Shown in pieces: positions 1 through 13,951 of a stretch of DNA of 64,000 nt; position 1 is the stretch's first letter; each line of letters begins with the position of its first letter. Under the pieces are notes generated by a model. The model did no database searches. It was not told the DNA's origin and saw only the letters and a list, made by a program, of their open reading frames with translations. Position numbers and translations under genes: made by a program. This stretch comes from Candidatus Bathyarchaeota archaeon (GTDB taxonomy: Archaea; Thermoproteota; Bathyarchaeia; TCS64): positions 416,001 through 480,000 of the forward strand of contig CAVYVF010000002.1 of NCBI GenBank assembly GCA_963771885.1. The letters run 5' to 3'.

Positions 1-623
1 GCTCCAAACCACCCATATAGGGGGATTCCACCATCAAGTATCCCGGGGCTGCCTCCAATGTCCGCGACGATCTTGAGGACTTCATTCTTGAGTTGTATCT
101 GCGCGTATCCTCTACGCGCATACGATACTTTTCCAGCTAATTCCATTGTAGGCTCTAGTTTGTCGAGTTCGAGTAGGCTTTCTATCGGGTAGCCTCCCCT
201 AACTCTTACGGGATCAGCCGCGGGGCGCACTTCGAGGTGGGTATGTAGCGGGGTCTGGTAACCGAAGTACCCGGAACGGATCATCGGGCCTAAGACGTCC
301 CCTGCGCATACAAATTCACCAATAGCCAGAACAGTACCTACGTGAAGGATCTTTACAACCCTATCTGGCATCCGTGTGCCAATTATTGTCAATATGTCGT
401 GGTCTGGGGCTTTGAAGTTTCTACCCGGCGGCGCCTTCACACGCCTAACCTGCAGTATCTCTCCAGAGACGGGTGACTGAGCGGAGCCCTCACTCAGAGC
501 GTCTGCGTAAATGTCGACGCCGGTCATCAGGCGATGGGAGGGGTAGGGACTGTTGTAGAATGAGTACAGTCCGTCCTCGGGGCAGAAGAGTGTGACATCA
601 TCCGACGCGGCGACGGGAAGCAT
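1..623 (-). CDS. M23/LytM-like metallopeptidase-fold hypothetical protein, runs off the window edge
   Basis: Manual translation from ATG at 623: MLPVAASDDVTLFCPEDGLYSFYNSPYPSHRLMTGVDIY...SPVSGEI...KILHV...GDVLG...SGYFGYQTPLHTHLEVR. Has HxxxxxxD and HxH-LEVR motifs typical of M23-like folds. Absent from the ORF track because it has no stop in the window. Confidence 0.6.
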   Translation of the reverse strand, partial: MLPVAASDDVTLFCPEDGLYSFYNSPYPSHRLMTGVDIYADALSEGSAQSPVSGEILQVRRVKAPPGRNFKAPDHDILTIIGTRMPDRVVKILHVGTVLAIGEFVCAGDVLGPMIRSGYFGYQTPLHTHLEVRPAADPVRVRGGYPIESLLELDKLEPTMELAGKVSYARRGYAQIQLKNEVLKIVADIGGSPGILDGGIPLYGWFG

Positions 624-840
624 TGCCCCCAAGCAGTATTACCAGCACTTACCATGAAAGGATTAGGGCTCTTATAGTTAATCACCCAACATCCGAGCGG
701 TATAGGAATCCGTTGAATGTTTACGTCGTATACGACACAAGGACGTCGCTAGGTTTGTCGACTTCTAGACCGTGCAGCGAGGACGGGAAGTACTACGCCC
801 AAGCGGTGAGGATGGCGACTCTCGAGCCATATGCAATCTA

Positions 841-1290
841 TCACTCTAACACCCCGTCTGTGAAAGGTGAGAGCACCGTTGCGGCCGCGGAACGTGCGAG
901 CGTAGCGTACTTCTTGAGGTCAAGCCTCCCCCGGTGTAATCTGCGGGCTTGACGCGGCGGAAGGGGTTCCGGTTACCGGCGTCCACGTAGACATAGTTGA
1001 CTAGGGTGCCAACGTCGAGGGGTGCATGGTTCATCGATAGCACCTCGGCGGCGACGACGTGGCCGGGGCGGCTCGCGTACTCGAAGGGGGGGGTGACGAA
1101 GGGTGATGAGACTCGCAGATACTCCTCGGGAACACGCCCCTCCATGAGATTCCTTATGGATACCTCCAGTTCCTCGCGTGCCTGTCGGAGGTCTTCGTTG
1201 TGCACGGCGTCGGCGGTGGGTGGGGTGAGTGGGCTCTCTATGACGCGCTGCTGTAGGTGGTTCACGTAGGTGGGCGTGTCGCGTGCGGTG
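841..1290 (-). pseudogene. Family B DNA polymerase C-terminal (thumb) fragment
   Basis: Reads ARDTPTYVNHLQQRVIE...LMEGRVPEEYLRVS...EY...GHVVAAE...GTLVNYVYV...RVKP; after a frameshift in the G run near 930 it continues RLDLKKYATLARSAAATVLSPF to TGA at 841-843. Matches PolB thumb motifs. No palm or exonuclease domain upstream. Confidence 0.6.
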
Positions 1291-1357: not shown

Positions 1358-2011
1358 ATGGGCGGAATTTTGGCAGTCGTCTCCCACCCCGACGATGAAA
1401 CTTTCGGTTGCGGTGGAACACTAGCTCTCCACGGCGGGGAATCTACAGTGCTGTGCCTGACATGTAATCCCCGGAACAGGAGCAGTGAGCTGGAGACGGC
1501 GTGCGGGGCTCTCAGCGTCGCTAAACCCATCATTTTTATGGAAGACGACGTCGCCCCGTCGAGGGGGCTCGTGAGGCGGATCGCAGACGTAATCGTGGCT
1601 TCAAGGCCAAACGTCGTAATCACCCATCTGCCCTTCGACTACCACGCCGACCATAGGGCGACCTACAGCGTAGTGAAGGAGGCGATTGAGTGGGCGGCGC
1701 ACACCACCACAAATGAGGAGCCACATCTAGTGAAGCGATTGTTGCTTATGGAGGTGAACACTCTGATACCTAATCCCCACGTGGTCGTCAACATAACGAA
1801 AATGATGAAGAAAAAGATGATAGCTGTTGAGGCCTACCCTACGCAGCTTATCAAGTTTACGTGGGGCTATTATCAGAGGTTCGTCGAGGAAAAAGCGAGG
1901 CTTCGCGGGGCACAGGGCAACTGCGCTTACGCTGAAGCCTTCATTGAGGAGTCGATTGCTGAGAATAGCCCCTTTTACGAGGCGAAGACGACGAGAAACT
2001 TGCTGAGGTGA
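1358..2011 (+). CDS. bshB: PIG-L/LmbE-family deacetylase, BshB-like (GlcNAc-malate deacetylase)
   Basis: SHPDDETFGCGG and DYHADH zinc motifs, C-terminal YAEAF. GTGA overlap with bshC; bshA adjacent. Confidence 0.75.
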   Translation: MGGILAVVSHPDDETFGCGGTLALHGGESTVLCLTCNPRNRSSELETACGALSVAKPIIFMEDDVAPSRGLVRRIADVIVASRPNVVITHLPFDYHADHRATYSVVKEAIEWAAHTTTNEEPHLVKRLLLMEVNTLIPNPHVVVNITKMMKKKMIAVEAYPTQLIKFTWGYYQRFVEEKARLRGAQGNCAYAEAFIEESIAENSPFYEAKTTRNLLR

Positions 2012-3744
2012 TAGTGATGAGTGAGAACCCTCCAGTACACATACTTTACCAGAAGTTCACCGAAAATGACCCAGCTGGGGAGTACGCTCCACAACTTTGG
2101 GGGAGGATCCCAAGAAACATGGCTGAGTGCCATGGTTACCTCGCCGAGATAAGGGCGAAATACGGCACGCCTCCAGCGGAGCTTGAGGACCTGAAGAAGG
2201 CTATGAAGGCACAGATGCGGAGTCTTGGCATACTCACAAAGAAGACCGAGACGCATATAGACACTCTCGACAGGGGTGCCGTTGAAACGGGGCAGCAGCC
2301 AAACTGTCTCGGGGGCCCCAGCTTCATCTTTAACAAGATAACCTATATCGCCACGCTCGCAGGGCTCGGCGGCGGCTACGTTCCCCTCTACTACGTTGGC
2401 GACTACGACAGCGTTCAGGCGGAGCTTATTAACATACGTGTCCCGAGCCCTTCCGCCAAGGGAATGCTGATCACCTACCCCTCATCCTCAGAATATGAGG
2501 GCGCCCCCATCAGGAGGCTGCTAAACCCCGATGAGGAGTGGCTGAGGAAAACACTGGAGAAGGTGGAGAGCAACTACCGAGGCCTCCTCAAAGGCGTCGA
2601 GCCGGCGAGGCAGGAGAAGGTGCTTCAGAACCTCTCCCACATCAATACGATAATCAAGAACTCCTACTATTCTACCGAGAACGTCGCCGACTTCTCAACG
2701 AAGATACTCGGCTCTATCGTTAACTTGGAGGTGGACATGGGTATACCGATGCTCTCAGCCACTCACCCGTCGATCAGGGGCTTCTTCCGGCACGGCTATG
2801 AGGTGCTGCTATCAGAGCCGAACAGGAGCAGCTTCATCAGAGCGTCGAACGACGCAGTCGACCTCATCGAGGGGCTCGGCTACAGAGCGCAGATAGGTAA
2901 AAGGGGGATGGACTACGTGCCTTTTTTCCTTGAGTGCCAGACGCCGAGCTGCTACGGCAGCAGAGTCGAGCTGAAGTATCATATTAACGGTTCAAATGCG
3001 AGCGTCGAGGGTAAGTGCCAACGATGCGAGCAGGAATACAGCTACTCGTTCTCGGCTGAGAGACCGGATATTTCGGAGATCGCAGAGATCATTACACCTC
3101 GAGTCGACTCCCGTCAGGTCGTCGTCGACTCCGTCATTCCTGTACTAGCCCATGTCGGTGGACCTGGCGAGACGAGTTACTATGCAGAGGTCATCCCAGG
3201 TATCTCGGGGCTTGACTTAGCCTTCCCCACATTCACGCGATACGCCCGCGTCTTTTATAACACACCGTGGAATGAAATCGCCGGGAAGTCCCTCGAGGCG
3301 AGAGGCTATATAACACTCTCCCGCAGGGAGCTGTTCGATGCGCTAGCCTCGTGGGTTGAGGCAAAGAGGGCGGGAAACCTCGAGGGCACCGCAAAGGCAC
3401 ACGTTGATATAAGGAAGGCTATCGACGAGACCTATACCATGCTGAGCAAGTCGAAGGTGGACGCCGAGGCGGAGGTCAACTCCATTAAGAAGAATCTTTC
3501 AGACCCCTCCACGCGCGCTATCCTAATTCAAGAGATGAAGATTAAGCAGGTGCTGACCGGTGAGTTAGACACCTACTTATCATACGCTTTCGGTCACTTC
3601 GCACCGGAGAAATACGGGCAGGAGGTAAGCTGGACCTGGATCGACCTTGCCCTAACCTCAGGCATCGGGGAGAACGTTGGCATATACAAGAGGCTCTATG
3701 GCGGCAACACACCCAACTCGACGGTCTTTTTCGTTAACCTCTAG
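2008..3744 (+). CDS. bshC: Bacillithiol biosynthesis cysteine-adding enzyme BshC-like
   Basis: ETGQQPNCLGGPSFIFNK (BshC TGQQxxxxGGPxYxxxK), VPLYYVGDYD (cf. VPVFWxAxEDHD) and LAHVGGPGETSYYAE (cf. LAYVGGPGExAY) motifs; C-terminal coiled coil. Confidence 0.85.
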   Translation: MIVMSENPPVHILYQKFTENDPAGEYAPQLWGRIPRNMAECHGYLAEIRAKYGTPPAELEDLKKAMKAQMRSLGILTKKTETHIDTLDRGAVETGQQPNCLGGPSFIFNKITYIATLAGLGGGYVPLYYVGDYDSVQAELINIRVPSPSAKGMLITYPSSSEYEGAPIRRLLNPDEEWLRKTLEKVESNYRGLLKGVEPARQEKVLQNLSHINTIIKNSYYSTENVADFSTKILGSIVNLEVDMGIPMLSATHPSIRGFFRHGYEVLLSEPNRSSFIRASNDAVDLIEGLGYRAQIGKRGMDYVPFFLECQTPSCYGSRVELKYHINGSNASVEGKCQRCEQEYSYSFSAERPDISEIAEIITPRVDSRQVVVDSVIPVLAHVGGPGETSYYAEVIPGISGLDLAFPTFTRYARVFYNTPWNEIAGKSLEARGYITLSRRELFDALASWVEAKRAGNLEGTAKAHVDIRKAIDETYTMLSKSKVDAEAEVNSIKKNLSDPSTRAILIQEMKIKQVLTGELDTYLSYAFGHFAPEKYGQEVSWTWIDLALTSGIGENVGIYKRLYGGNTPNSTVFFVNL

Positions 3745-4849
3745 ATTTCACTGACTCGAAGGTCTCGATGTACTGATTAACGACCTTTTCCGCTGTGTAT
3801 CGCTCAAGGATGGTTTCGCGCGCCTTTTTTCCTAGCTTGTTCCTTAGCTTCTTGTCCCCGTAGAGGCGGAGTATCGCTTGCGCCAGTTCCTCGGGGTGCT
3901 TTGGCGGGACAAGGAGCCCGTTCTCGCCGTCGTCTATTATCTCGTGTACACCACCGACCTTCGTGGATACCATCGGTAGCCCCGTGCTCATGCCCTCTAG
4001 GAGTGTCAGCGGGGCGCTCTCAGTCTCGCTACAGAGGATGCCTATATCGGCGCAACGCATGAGGTTGGGTATGTCGCTTCTAAAACCGGTCATCGTCACG
4101 TTTCGCTGTAGCTTGAGACTGCTGATCAGAGTCTCGACGCCGTGCCTGTCGGGGCCATCGCCAACAAGAGTGAGGTGTGCCTTTGGCTTCTCTTTAACGA
4201 CGATCGCCATCGCATAGACTAAGTCATAGACCCTCTTAACGGGGCGGAAGTTGCTGACGTGGATTATACCGCCGCATTCGTCGCAGCCTGTCTCAACTGC
4301 GTCGCACTCCTTAGGGCTGAAGGCGTCGGCGTCGACGAAGTTGGGTATGACCTTGACCTCGCGCTCGATGCCTAAGCGCTCGTATGCTTCTCTCTGCATG
4401 AACGCGGAGACGGCGGTGACAGCGTCCGCTTTCTCAACATTGTGGTTATTGACTATGTGATAGCTGGGATCGCTTCCGAGGATTGTGACATCGCTACCGT
4501 GAAGAGTGACGACGTAGGGGACGCCGGTTATCTCACGGGCTAAGAAGGCGGCCGTCGCGTGGGGGATAGCATAGTGGACGTTCAGGACGTCTAGCTTCTC
4601 CTCTTTGGAGACGCGCGCCATTTCGGAGCCGAGCGCCACCGTATAGGGTGGGTATTTGAATAGGGGGTACTCTAGGACGTTGACGAGGTGGATGTGGACG
4701 TTCTCCTGGTCTATGCCTTGTACGGCGAATGGACGTTCATAGGTAATGAAGTGGACATCGTGTCCTCTCTTGGCGAACTCGACGCCGAGGCGTGTTGCGA
4801 GTATCCCGCTGCCGCCTACTCCTGGGTAACATGTGATGCCAATTCTCAA
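3734..4849 (-). CDS. bshA: N-acetyl-alpha-D-glucosaminyl L-malate synthase (GT4)
   Basis: MRIGITCYPGVGGSGILAT, YPLFKYPPY, VHYAIPHA, TLHGSDVT, HVSNFRPVKRV are BshA signatures. TTG start at 4849 follows GGAGG. Confidence 0.92.
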   Translation of the reverse strand: MRIGITCYPGVGGSGILATRLGVEFAKRGHDVHFITYERPFAVQGIDQENVHIHLVNVLEYPLFKYPPYTVALGSEMARVSKEEKLDVLNVHYAIPHATAAFLAREITGVPYVVTLHGSDVTILGSDPSYHIVNNHNVEKADAVTAVSAFMQREAYERLGIEREVKVIPNFVDADAFSPKECDAVETGCDECGGIIHVSNFRPVKRVYDLVYAMAIVVKEKPKAHLTLVGDGPDRHGVETLISSLKLQRNVTMTGFRSDIPNLMRCADIGILCSETESAPLTLLEGMSTGLPMVSTKVGGVHEIIDDGENGLLVPPKHPEELAQAILRLYGDKKLRNKLGKKARETILERYTAEKVVNQYIETFESVKSRG

Positions 4850-4907
4850 AGATGCGCCTCCTAACAACTAGCGGATATAGAAAGGTGAAATAAAAAGGGG
4901 TGGGCGC

Positions 4908-5366
4908 CTACTTTGTGCCCTTCATCCTCTTCTCGACGCCGAGGATGGCCGCGATCTGGCCCTCATGATGGATGATCTCACTCGTCATCAGCATGAGGTA
5001 GAACTCGCGTGGTTTCTTCCCGGCCCAAGCCTCGACTGGCTCGTCGAGCTGCTCGTTTGTCAGCTTATTCAGGCCGGCGTTGAGCTTCCTGTGCCCTTTG
5101 GCGATGTCGGCGAGTATCTTCTCCTGTTTGTACTTGGGGTTACCGACGTAGTCCTTTGGCCAGTCCTTCGGTTGCTCCGAGCCGAGGAACTTTGGCATGT
5201 AAACGTTCAGCTCCTCGCTCAGGTGGGTGAGTATCCACCTGATCGTGTTAGCCTGCGTGCAGCTCTTCCAATCGATCTGTTCGGGCTTCAGGTTCTTCGT
5301 GGCGCTCTCGAGCCTGTCGAACCCAATCTGTGCGAAGTCCTTTATCATCTTCGTCTTGACTGTCAT
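4908..5366 (-). CDS. DinB/YfiT-family protein (candidate thiol S-transferase)
   Basis: NTIRWILTHL and SEIIHHEGQI motifs in a ~150 aa helical-bundle protein. Confidence 0.8.
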   Translation of the reverse strand: MTVKTKMIKDFAQIGFDRLESATKNLKPEQIDWKSCTQANTIRWILTHLSEELNVYMPKFLGSEQPKDWPKDYVGNPKYKQEKILADIAKGHRKLNAGLNKLTNEQLDEPVEAWAGKKPREFYLMLMTSEIIHHEGQIAAILGVEKRMKGTK

Positions 5367-5447
5367 CGGATCACCAGAATCCGAGTTTTATCTCTGATTC
5401 AATGTGTATATAATACTACCCCTAAAAAGGGGTGTTTTCGGAGTTTT

Positions 5448-5938
5448 TCAGCACTTGAAATCGGGGTCTGCGGCCTTAAGGCGCTTGACCGTACCGCGGA
5501 TGTAGGCAATCTGGCCCTTGTGATGGACGATCTCGCCAATGTATGCGAAGAGACCTATCTTCCTCTTCTTGGTGCCGCCCCAGAGCGGAATCTCCTCCTC
5601 TAGCTGGGCGTCGGTCAGCTTGGCGATGCCGTCGAGAGTCACCTTCTTCCCCGCGGCGAGGTCCGCCCTGTACTTGTCGAGGCTGTAGTGCTGCTCCTTG
5701 TAGTCGTCGGGCCAGTCAGAGGCTTGTAGTTTGGATCCCCCTTAATTATACGAGGGAGCGCCGTGTTGCTTATCCTGCAGAGGTGGTTGACTATCCACTC
5801 TATGCTATTTGACTCCTCGGTCATCTGATAGTTCGCCTCGTCCATCTCAAGTCCCTTGAGCTGCTCCTCGAGGGAGTTATAGTGGTACTCGGCATACTCC
5901 TTCAAAATCTGTGCTTTCGCTGACAAGTTGTTCACCAA
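5448..5938 (-). CDS. DinB/YfiT-family protein, paralog of the neighbour (one frameshift near 5720)
   Basis: Joining ORFs 5639-5938 and 5448-5642 gives NSIEWIVNHL...KPSDWPDDY...GEIVHHKGQIAYIRG, colinear with the adjacent DinB gene. Confidence 0.75.
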
Positions 5939-5983: not shown

Positions 5984-6886
5984 TCAGCGAATGTAAGCAC
6001 CAAGGCCGGACTGCGAGGGGCTGAATCCTTCCAGGTCTTCAGATATCCTCCGCCCAGTGAGGGCATGGATATTCACCGAGTAAATTATGCCCGTGTTCTC
6101 CAGGTATAGTATAGGCCCCTTAGCGCCAAGTATTTTCCCCGCTATCGCTACGTTGTCCCTTATCTTCACATCGATTGGGCGAACTTTAGTCTGGGGAAGC
6201 TCGTATACGGGAGATAATAGGGTTGTTGCCTCGTCTATCCGAGCTGCGAAAGGTAGTATTTGACGTATCTTATCCGTAAACTCTTCGAGGCTTTTAAGAC
6301 CCCATTCTAGCTCTCTCGGGTCAGTGAACGCTGTTTTCTCATCGGCCTTGACACGTTTCAGTGCGCCTAGTTCGTCCTGTATCCTTTTCTCGTAGACCCT
6401 CACCTCACGGCCGTTCCCCGCTAGGACCCTACGTGCCGCGTCTGCGCCTTGCTCAATCCACCTCTTCTCGACCCTTCGCCCCTGAGAGACGCCTGCCTTG
6501 ATCCTGTCGCCGAAGACTGCGAGGTAGACGAATGCCTCACTCCGCTCGCATGCCTCCCTAACACTTTGGTGGGCGGAGCATGATTCACCCGTGCAGCGGG
6601 CGCAGGGGCCGGATGCGTCGTTCGTTGCGCATGCTCTGCACTGGTTCCCGGAGTCGGCCAGGGAGGAAGTGGGGCATGGAACGCGTTCCTTCCAAGAGTC
6701 CATCATCGAGTAGTCGCGCGTGACACGTGAGTGACCGACGCAGAACCTCCCTCTACCGATCCTGAAGGAGATGTTCTTATCTCTCTCTAGAACGACCTTG
6801 CCGGGGTTGTCGGCCGTCAACAGCTTCACCCGCCAAACGCCATCGAGGTTCTCCCACTGTGTGGCGTAGACGAGCCGGACGGACAT
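5984..6886 (-). CDS. DUF2797-like Cys-rich protein
   Basis: Several Cys clusters followed by VYLAVFGDRIKAGVS and RWIEQGA motifs. Confidence 0.65.
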   Translation of the reverse strand: MSVRLVYATQWENLDGVWRVKLLTADNPGKVVLERDKNISFRIGRGRFCVGHSRVTRDYSMMDSWKERVPCPTSSLADSGNQCRACATNDASGPCARCTGESCSAHQSVREACERSEAFVYLAVFGDRIKAGVSQGRRVEKRWIEQGADAARRVLAGNGREVRVYEKRIQDELGALKRVKADEKTAFTDPRELEWGLKSLEEFTDKIRQILPFAARIDEATTLLSPVYELPQTKVRPIDVKIRDNVAIAGKILGAKGPILYLENTGIIYSVNIHALTGRRISEDLEGFSPSQSGLGAYIR

Positions 6887-12849: not shown

Positions 12850-13951
12850 TTATACGCAGCTACCCTTCCGGGGGAAAACAGCTCGGATGTTCTTCCCAAA
12901 GGGAGGCTTGATGACTCCGACTTCGGTTATGAAGCCCATAATGTATTTGGCGGGGGTGACGTCGAAACTGGGGTTCAGCGCTGTTGTACCTTCGGCTGAG
13001 ATACGCACTTTGGTATAGTTGCCCCCCTCGTCGACGCCCCAGACCCAGTTGACCTCATCGGGGCTTCTCTCCTCAATCTCGATGGCGTCACCGTTGCGGC
13101 ATCTCAAGTCAAAGGTCATTTTAGGGGCGGCGACGTAGAATGGTACTCCGTTCTCGTGGGCAAGGACCGCCTTCTCATATGTGCCTATCTTGTTTGCGGT
13201 GTCCCCGTTGGCAGCGATCCTATCCGCGCCCACGATTACTAAATCAACATCGCCGCGGCGCATGTAGTGACCCGCAGCGTTGTCCGCGATTAGTGCGTAG
13301 GGTATTCCCTCCTGCTGGAGCTCCCATGCCGTGAGCCTCGCGCCTTGGCTACGGGGTCGCGTCTCGTCTGCGAAGACGAAGATGTGCTTCCCAGCCCTGT
13401 GCGCCGAGCGTATAGGGGCGAGGGCTGAGCCGTTGTCTATGAAGGCGAGGGCGCCGGCGTTGCAGTGTGTGAGCACACGGCAACCGTTCTTGATGATGGC
13501 GCTGCCATATTTTCCCATCTTCCTCGATGCGTCGAGGTCCTCGAGGGCTATCTTGTCCGCCTCCGTACACGCCGCCGCGACACGCTCCTCGACGCTGCCC
13601 TTTGAGGCTGCTTTGGCGACCCGATCGATTGCGTGGAATAGGTTGACTGCCGTGGGGCGCGTGCACCTCAATTTGGTAGCGGCGAAGGAGACATATTCCT
13701 TGAACTCTCTTAGCTTCTTGGTCTTTGGCTTCTAGCGCCGCTTGGGCGACGCCGTATCCGCCCGCAACGCCTATGGCTCCCGCTCCTCTGACCGCCATGT
13801 CGCGTATAGCCTCCGCCGTCTCACTGTGGCTCGTTAGCGTGAGTATCTCGAACCTGTGGGGGAGGAGGCGCTGGTCTATCATCTTGACAGCTGCGCCTTC
13901 CCTCCAGAGAGTCCATAACTCCTTCGTCTCGCCGTTGAAAGTTACCTTCAC
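12850..13951 (-). CDS. mtnA: Methylthioribose-1-phosphate isomerase / eIF2B-like (frameshift near 13725)
   Basis: IDQRLLP, MAVRGAGAIG, then TRPTAVNL, LTHCNAGALA, ETRP, GADRIAANGDTANKIGTY, NPSFDVTP. Confidence 0.88.

Follow-up and report, generated by a model that had tools for sequence, protein, structure and literature searches.

In a 64,000-nucleotide stretch of a Candidatus Bathyarchaeota archaeon genome (assembly GCA_963771885.1, contig CAVYVF010000002.1, positions 416,001 to 480,000; hereafter the window), we found a bacillithiol-type locus in which a BshB-like deacetylase, a BshC-like ligase, a BshA-family glycosyltransferase and two DinB-family proteins are encoded between positions 1358 and 5938. 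The BshA-family enzyme carries a proline where bacterial BshA has a glycine in its donor-binding motif. Judging from this change in the sequence, we consider it on balance probable that the locus makes a galactosamine-based variant of bacillithiol, in which UDP-N-acetylgalactosamine (UDP-GalNAc) and malate would be converted to Cys-GalN-malate. The first-pass annotation of this DNA had proposed bacillithiol (BSH) or a variant; the bacillithiol-type pathway stands, and the Gly-to-Pro change, which that annotation missed, favours the variant over canonical BSH. That Cys-GalN-malate is a low-molecular-weight thiol specific to archaea and common to one Bathyarchaeia family and two Asgard groups, by way of one Gly-to-Pro change in BshA, is a view that we hold slightly more readily than its opposite.

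In the proposed pathway, a PelX-like C4-epimerase encoded elsewhere in the genome would supply UDP-GalNAc, and the BshA-family enzyme would transfer GalNAc to L-malate by the retaining mechanism of glycosyltransferase family 4 (GT4). The coupled PIG-L zinc hydrolase would then strip the acetyl group, and the archaeal BshC, a Rossmann enzyme presumably derived from class I lysyl-tRNA synthetase (LysRS), would add cysteine to yield Cys-GalN-malate, the isobaric C4 epimer of bacillithiol. Finally, the two DinB proteins could use this thiol by conjugating it to electrophiles.

Proline in the donor motif of BshA

Score, fold and tree all identify the window enzyme (3734..4867, minus strand; 377 amino acids from TTG 4867, probable start 4849) as a BshA. 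With 390 bits against TIGR03999 (cut-off 273.7) it is the sole gene of the locus over its NCBIfam cut-off, and the best match of its model (pLDDT 87) is a solved BshA (Z 50.1 and 1.7 Å to Bacillus anthracis 3MBO). Its identity is 38-41% to solved BshA and 19-23% to PglH and PglA. Numbering residues from the longest open reading frames of the window, as throughout, we found H118, N171, S203, N204, R206, K209, E280, S281 and E288 of Staphylococcus aureus BshA all kept. Mutation of H118, K209, E280 or E288, which correspond to H123, K211, E283 and E291 of the window, abolishes activity in the S. aureus enzyme (PMC10361700). F282 and G283 are replaced by Ala and Pro286, so that the EX7E donor-binding motif (E283-S-A-P286...E291; 3995..4021, minus strand) reads ESAP, and the GlcNAc-binding ESFG motif is absent from the window BshA.

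The ESFG motif of BshA hydrogen-bonds GlcNAc, and the main-chain NH at its Gly has been proposed to bind the gluco 3/4-OH (PMC10361700). In the meningococcal W polymerase, the exchange P310G at the matching position shifts the donor from UDP-Gal to UDP-Glc (PMC10361700), and in PglH of Campylobacter jejuni, which showed no activity with UDP-GlcNAc, exclusion of this donor has been attributed to the L269 carbonyl and P270 (PMC5792488). The PglH motif (E267, P270, E275) aligns with E283, P286 and E291 of the window enzyme; we regard a Pro at position +3 of EX7E as a marker, not as proof. Within a panel of further GT4 enzymes, Pro was found in WaaB and WcaC, both annotated as galactosyltransferases, and in WcaL, whose donor is not annotated, while Gly is found in WaaG, sucrose-phosphate synthase, glycogen synthase, PimB' and BshA; WbbK and WcaI, in which the motif was not matched, were excluded. 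For PglA, a proline (Pro281) is said to direct the preference for GalNAc.

Is the proline a common feature of archaeal BshA? It occupies the motif in 120/120 of the homologues listed (the best 120 of 7565). Among distinct sequences taken from loci, Pro was present in 39/39 Bathyarchaeia-type BshA (a set that includes locus L024, labelled bacterial), in 36/69 Asgard BshA (the 30 top scorers and some of the rest chosen by hand, two weak matches dropped, which makes this count no frequency) and in 0/68 bacterial BshA (mostly Bacteroidota); three Bacillota BshA added later have Gly. We then have an unrooted tree of 59 rows, hand-picked to cover the groups, with the three Bacillota included and the motif columns removed. 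In this tree Pro types (17 rows), Gly-type archaeal BshA (16) and bacteria (22) each occupy one side of a branch, at supports of 100/98, 99/96 and 98/93, and four rows remain ungrouped. On the assumption that the tree is not rooted within the Pro types, the change from Gly to Pro appears to have arisen once. The phylogeny across Bathyarchaeia and Asgard genomes that had been recommended as a check unites the Pro types in one clade.

Proline could nevertheless be a lineage-specific exchange that is compatible with UDP-GlcNAc, or both epimers could be accepted and the commoner UDP-GlcNAc win, in which case the product would be ordinary bacillithiol (Cys-GlcN-malate). We think this main rival unlikely, yet it deserves weight: the enzyme scores well over the BshA equivalog cut-off and superposes closely on B. 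anthracis BshA, it keeps the counterparts of residues that contact GlcNAc (H123, N176, S284 and E283), the locus has no linked epimerase, and in some Asgard loci Gly-type BshA is accompanied by a deacetylase of this subtype. These points are set against a residue without the main-chain NH proposed for the gluco 3/4-OH (PMC10361700), against PglH, which has the same Pro and rejects UDP-GlcNAc (PMC5792488), and against the presence of Pro in every homologue listed, with one origin across deep lineages, which looks selected. The locus would work like the bacillithiol pathway. It is no textbook member of that system, because its BshB and BshC stay below their equivalog cut-offs and its BshA lacks the GlcNAc motif.

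Deacetylase, BshC and the four-cysteine ribbon

The deacetylase gene (1358..2011, plus strand) encodes a 217-amino-acid, archaeal-type BshB-like protein of the LmbE/PIG-L family, which passed Pfam PF02585 (61.8 bits) and stayed below the models of BshB1 (TIGR04001, 76.5 versus 182.5) and BshB2 (TIGR04000, 58.7 versus 195.25). The HXDD+H metal motif and the substrate Arg defined for LmbE/PIG-L proteins (PMC4101496) are present (H10-P-D12-D13, H99 and R41), and these five residues are at least 95% conserved in 71 homologues linked to Pro-type BshA. The sugar-binding Asp of bacterial BshB1 and MshB (MshB Asp95) appears not to be conserved in the archaeal subtype, in a part of the alignment that is gappy, and the Asgard homologues beside Gly-type BshA appear to be without it as well. 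A deacetylase of the window type adjoins bshA in 36/36 Pro-type Asgard loci versus 8/33 other Asgard loci. Since all 36 Pro-type loci carry it, the donor would still be an N-acetyl sugar, most simply UDP-GalNAc. With Gly-type BshA accompanied by this subtype too, the deacetylase speaks neither for nor against the epimer, and we dropped it as independent support for galactosamine.

Downstream lies the gene of the archaeal-type BshC-like ligase (2008..3744, plus strand; 578 amino acids from GTG 2008), whose probable start, ATG 2017, is consistent with homologue lengths of 575-576 amino acids. The deacetylase stop (2009-2011) falls within a Shine-Dalgarno-like hexamer, GAGGTG, six bases 5' of this ATG, so that the translational coupling of both genes, which the first-pass annotation had presented as seen, fits the arrangement and is plausible. 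The ligase passes PF10079 (61.1 bits, cut-off 27) and falls short of TIGR03998 (69.7 versus 265.8); hence searches with the BshA, BshB1 and BshC models, as suggested in that annotation, bring BshA over its NCBIfam cut-off and leave BshB and BshC below theirs. At the profile level the match to bacterial-type BshC reaches 99.96%, and the model (pLDDT 94) matches the solved BshC 4WBD with a Foldseek E of 4e-20 and a VIA Z of 37.5, with Rossmann-like domain and coiled coil present. The next fold matches were class I LysRS (1IRX, Z 22.8), GluRS (11.9), CysRS (11.4) and MshC (10.2). A mycothiol pathway was considered and rejected, with MshA at 63 versus 462.5 bits, MshB at 30.6 versus 224.35, and a Z of 10.2 to MshC versus 37.5 to BshC.

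Four cysteines of BshC (C310, C315, C337 and C340; 2935..3027, plus strand) are invariant in 64/64 aligned homologues and are without counterpart in bacterial-type BshC, where the matching region holds 0-2 Cys in 17 representatives. They are in register with the cysteines of class I LysRS and make up a putative zinc ribbon. A profile search of 1.84 billion representatives, from which 85 long rows were compared, separated 29 archaeal rows, 39 rows of an orphan group that has the four cysteines and 17 bacterial-type rows that lack them; each group is well supported in a quick tree of 83 rows. Against the class I LysRS of Bathyarchaeia, the orphan profile reached 89.6% (E 1.9e-6), the archaeal profile an E of 0.0047, which is weak, and the bacterial profile an E of 0.25. 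HIGH and KMSKS had no match at either position in the BshC profile alignments. By a crude pattern, all four cysteines are present in 59/61 BshC encoded next to Pro-type BshA, and three in most of those next to Gly-type Asgard BshA. From these sequence and fold comparisons, we infer that BshC descends from the catalytic domain of class I LysRS and that the archaeal forms keep its zinc ribbon.

The inserted domain of class I synthetases contacts the acceptor arm of the tRNA. Because the adenylation motifs are missing from BshC while the zinc-ribbon insertion is kept, cysteinyl-tRNA is a candidate donor. In this reading archaeal BshC would be an intermediate between class I LysRS and bacterial BshC; that it takes its activated cysteine from cysteinyl-tRNA is speculation, a tentative and rather doubtful idea. 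According to reviews from 2015 and 2018 (PMC4360819, PMC5790435), the BshC reaction had not been reconstituted and the activated cysteine was unidentified. The archaeal branch would tie BshC to class I LysRS, away from CysRS and MshC, and offer a lead on this reaction.

The orphan BshC-like family with four cysteines (L047:6442-8758, L048:3611-5958, L049, and representatives among P0188-P0270) is the group closest to class I LysRS, and one member comes from Longilinea. In L047 and L048 the gene is coupled to a PIG-L deacetylase gene within GT2/GT4 glycosylation clusters, with no bshA in the stretch examined; the family may aminoacylate a glycan.

Partners, precursors and the nature of the thiol

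All five genes lie where the first-pass annotation had placed them. The bshC and bshA genes converge, and their 3' ends share 11 bases (3734-3744), as it had stated; likewise, the two DinB genes are found 5' of bshA on the minus strand, with the correction that the upstream one extends to about 5448. The first (4908..5366, 152 amino acids) encodes a putative thiol S-transferase over the cut-offs of PF12867 (48.7 versus 24.8) and PF04978 (32.7 versus 27), in which H48, E130, H133 and H134 are invariant in 59/59 locus-linked DinB; H48, E130 and H134 we take to be metal-ligand positions. The second putative transferase (5448..5938) is frameshifted near 5713-5717 in the assembly, with uninterrupted matches in relatives. 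No equivalog match to a characterised transferase was obtained (NF047843, 27 versus 170 bits), nor a solved relative at E<0.001. Two further DinB genes of the genome are located outside the locus: a third one divergent from a frameshifted amidohydrolase gene (G000:C2:41209-42733) and a fourth on contig C23 (799537-799998).

The supply of UDP-GalNAc could be met by an epimerase candidate of the genome, whose best PDB match is 6WJB (E 2.8e-47). This structure is PelX, a UDP-GlcNAc/UDP-GalNAc C4-epimerase (bioRxiv 2020.05.26.111013). A GalE-like match at E<=1e-40 occurs in 43/53 genomes of the family, with 0/53 over the GalE cut-off, and we take the candidate as permissive evidence only. Malic enzyme, class I fumarase and CysRS are present in the genome. 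In two Heimdallarchaeota loci, a thioredoxin-reductase-like gene (L045:4888-5820, L046:4941-5879; TIGR01292, 143.9 versus 343.45) is divergent from bshC, and similar genes occur in 6 Gly-type Asgard loci; it is a candidate disulfide reductase.

Several observations weigh against a galactosamine-based thiol, or against parts of its pathway. The proline rule is drawn from two papers plus a panel that is small and not random, and specificity is not settled by a single residue. S284, to which binding of the N-acetyl group is ascribed, is present in the window BshA, but the Asgard Pro types have Gly there, and T120 of S. aureus BshA, likewise reported essential (PMC10361700), is Ser125 here; the latter exchange is conservative and Ser is found in all 69 Asgard BshA, including the Gly types. 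The deacetylase subtype of the window adjoins Gly-type BshA in 7 Asgard loci. The epimerase candidate is encoded about 95 kb from the locus and scores below the GalE cut-off, such epimerases are common in glycan pathways, and no epimerase gene occurs among the conserved neighbours of the locus. Malate dehydrogenase was not found in the genome (it is found in 21/52 of the family). BshB and BshC are below their curated cut-offs, and cysteine as the added residue is suggested by the neighbouring genes only. Lastly, in this 92%-complete genome no YpdA/Bdr exceeded its cut-off (best TIGR04018 score 72.4 versus 339.9) and BrxA/B (PF06491) was not found, BrxC not having been searched. The locus, called complete in the first-pass annotation, is thus complete in its synthesis genes and not in its redox cycle.

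Part of this list could also be read to mean that the product differs elsewhere, with a hydroxy acid other than malate or an amino acid other than cysteine, hence no redox thiol. The archaeal BshC is a clade apart from bacterial BshC with about a quarter of the required score, a further BshC-like clade resides in glycosyltransferase clusters without bshA, neither malate dehydrogenase nor YpdA nor BrxA/B was found in the genome, and T120 is replaced by Ser. We consider such a product improbable, as the window BshA keeps the basic residues R208 and K211 and also N206, which we take to bind malate. In addition, genes of thiol chemistry surround the core genes, namely the two DinB, Thioredoxin_9 and the thioredoxin-reductase-like genes of the Heimdall loci, and a different Bathyarchaeia lineage has a member of this amidohydrolase family next to a bshC-bshB1-bshA operon of fully bacterial type.

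Origin of the locus and relation to known systems

The locus is genuine and of archaeal origin. It is placed on a 498-kb contig with a GC content ordinary for the window, and one independent contig spans 2227-6000. The closest named relatives of its BshC are Ca. Bathyarchaeia metagenome-assembled genomes (MAGs), with identities up to 94%, and an approximately unbiased (AU) test rejects a grouping of the Bathyarchaeia Pro-type BshA with bacterial BshA (p-AU 0.0059). The claim of a bacillithiol-type pathway in an archaeon is thereby borne out. A survey of 300 genomes from the class gave BshC-like matches in 46/52 genomes of the window's family and 3/248 others, and bshA over the cut-off in 45/52 and 1/248; in the phylum to which the Heimdall genome of L045 belongs, bshA exceeds the cut-off in 94/201 genomes. 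Going by the name UBA8941 (L007), the window's family is presumably TCS64 of GTDB.

Could the locus still have been imported recently from bacteria, be a relic in decay, or be a chimera of the assembly, as the first-pass annotation had itself cautioned for the last case? One DinB gene is frameshifted, the genome is 6.7% contaminated, and two related loci (L022 and L024) come from MAGs labelled bacterial. The long contig with archaeal-type genes around, the ordinary GC, the bridging contig, the near-fixation in the family, the 32/43 related loci with all three core genes and the AU test led us to reject a bacterial chimera or recent import, and we regard this whole set of explanations as very improbable. 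L022 and L024 (labelled Desulfaltia and Krumholzibacteriaceae), whose BshC shows 54% identity, are short contigs that have the gene order of Bathyarchaeia and were probably misbinned; the labels of the 45 related loci are otherwise 40 Bathyarchaeia, 1 unclassified archaeon and 2 Heimdallarchaeota. The contigs of 3/3 DNA runs covering the DinB site carry one extra base and lack the frameshift, and the class I LysRS gene of the assembly is also split, in three pieces; the frameshift is therefore probably an assembly error, and true pseudogenisation was rejected.

Split housekeeping genes were seen at window positions 12850-13951 (presumably methylthioribose-phosphate isomerase-like), in class I LysRS (G000:C2:356394-357472) and in fumarase (C23:969366-970168), which argues for an indel-rich assembly.

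In relatives, the usual order is bshB, amidohydrolase (PF04909) and bshC, converging on Thioredoxin_9 (PF14595), bshA, DinB and DinB. Of the 43 loci compared (L002-L044), many of which are truncated where their contig stops, 36 contain bshB, 35 bshA, 30 DinB, 30 the amidohydrolase and 19 Thioredoxin_9. The window genome has orthologues of the amidohydrolase (77% identical; the frameshifted gene beside the third DinB) and of Thioredoxin_9 (49%) outside the locus, the latter adjoining a second PIG-L deacetylase gene (G000:C22:74993-76352). In relatives, the DinB pair is often followed by genes of MerR/GyrI-like, GyrI-like or beta-lactamase-family (PF13354) proteins (for example L025:9829-10659, L042:6520-7158 and L018:12621-13457), which fits a detoxification island. 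In a second Bathyarchaeia lineage, a bacterial-type operon of amidohydrolase, bshC, bshB1 and bshA stands beside ribosomal protein genes (L164:3887-8326); its BshA has ESFG and is matched at 72-80% in 13 further Bathyarchaeia MAGs, and its BshC is without the cysteine ribbon. The amidohydrolase family common to L164 and the window-type loci is a candidate thiol-conjugate hydrolase. Next to Gly-type bshA, 26 Asgard loci (L170:2390-2935 and 25 others) have a conserved gene of about 180 amino acids, presumably resembling Tsr3.

Around the locus, a gene of about 293 amino acids (window 1-632, minus strand, beginning about 250 bases before the window) has no Pfam or NCBIfam match, and its relatives lie near bshB in 10 close relatives. 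A 139-amino-acid reading frame upstream of bshB (846-1265, minus strand) resembles DNA polymerase B very weakly (E 0.057), was matched in 1/45 related loci (L007), and is possibly a relic. A DUF2797 gene (5984-6886, minus strand) upstream of the DinB pair recurs in 2 related loci only. A promoter and terminator scan, of a kind unsuited to archaea, remained at the shuffle level (2 versus 2.5 and 6 versus 3.9), and two short contigs of one metatranscriptome, both inside bshC only, are insufficient as evidence of transcription. The suggestion of a probably anaerobic host agrees with a haem-copper oxidase in only 1/53 family genomes, a count that does not cover cytochrome bd.

Archaeal homologues themselves are no novelty. 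Rawat and Maupin-Furlow (2020) counted 39 BshA and 39 BshC InterPro homologues in archaea, mostly Asgard, with BSH undetected in archaea (PMC7278568), in agreement with the first-pass annotation, which knew of no biochemical demonstration there, and NCBI already names several relatives BshA or BshC. The designation as an undescribed system therefore does not hold, and what is new here is the Gly-to-Pro change in the donor motif of archaeal BshA. The string 'Bathyarchae' is absent from the main text of that study, and BshB, gene clusters, motif variants and the zinc ribbon are untreated in the portion examined (PMC7278568). A RefSeq survey of 2025 reports no archaeal bacillithiol pathway (PMC12719100), and our literature search, which covered few subscription papers, found no paper on a galactosamine bacillithiol. 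If the proline rule holds, the locus represents a major redox thiol in a new stereochemical form, which would be almost fixed in one family of Bathyarchaeia and common in the sample of Asgard BshA. As Cys-GalN-malate is isobaric with bacillithiol, detection by mass only would confuse them, and 'BshA' database labels would likewise misidentify the product. The assay with UDP-GlcNAc plus malate, proposed in the first-pass annotation, could fail owing to the Pro and then be misread as a refutation of the pathway.

How does the locus compare with characterised systems? With the bacillithiol genes of Bacillus subtilis, B. anthracis and S. aureus (PDB 5D00, 3MBO, 6N1X, 4WBD) it shares a GT4 enzyme that exceeds the BshA cut-off and retains most catalytic residues, the LmbE HXDD+H motif and the BshC fold, with DinB proteins as predicted users. 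It differs from the bacterial system by ESAP in place of ESFG, Ser in place of T120, BshB and BshC below their cut-offs, the cysteine ribbon of BshC and the failure to find YpdA or BrxA/B; in addition, the window-type relatives hold their genes in one cluster, mostly with amidohydrolase and Thioredoxin_9. Galacto-specific GT4 enzymes (PglH, the meningococcal W capsule polymerase, WaaB and WcaC) have, like the window BshA, a Pro three residues past the first Glu of EX7E, but act on lipid-linked or polymeric glycans. Class I LysRS (1IRX), the second-best fold match of BshC, shares the aligned inserted-domain cysteines; in contrast to it, BshC has no HIGH or KMSKS match and a coiled coil replaces the anticodon-binding domain, and the genome has a class I LysRS of its own. 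N-methyl-bacillithiol of Chlorobaculum tepidum, made with NmbA, is a precedent for a distinct bacillithiol variant in an anaerobe (PMC12719100). No methyltransferase was seen among the conserved neighbours of window-type loci, a genome-wide NmbA search not having been made. Whereas N-methyl-bacillithiol needs an added methyltransferase (PMC12719100), the variant proposed here would differ in sugar stereochemistry.

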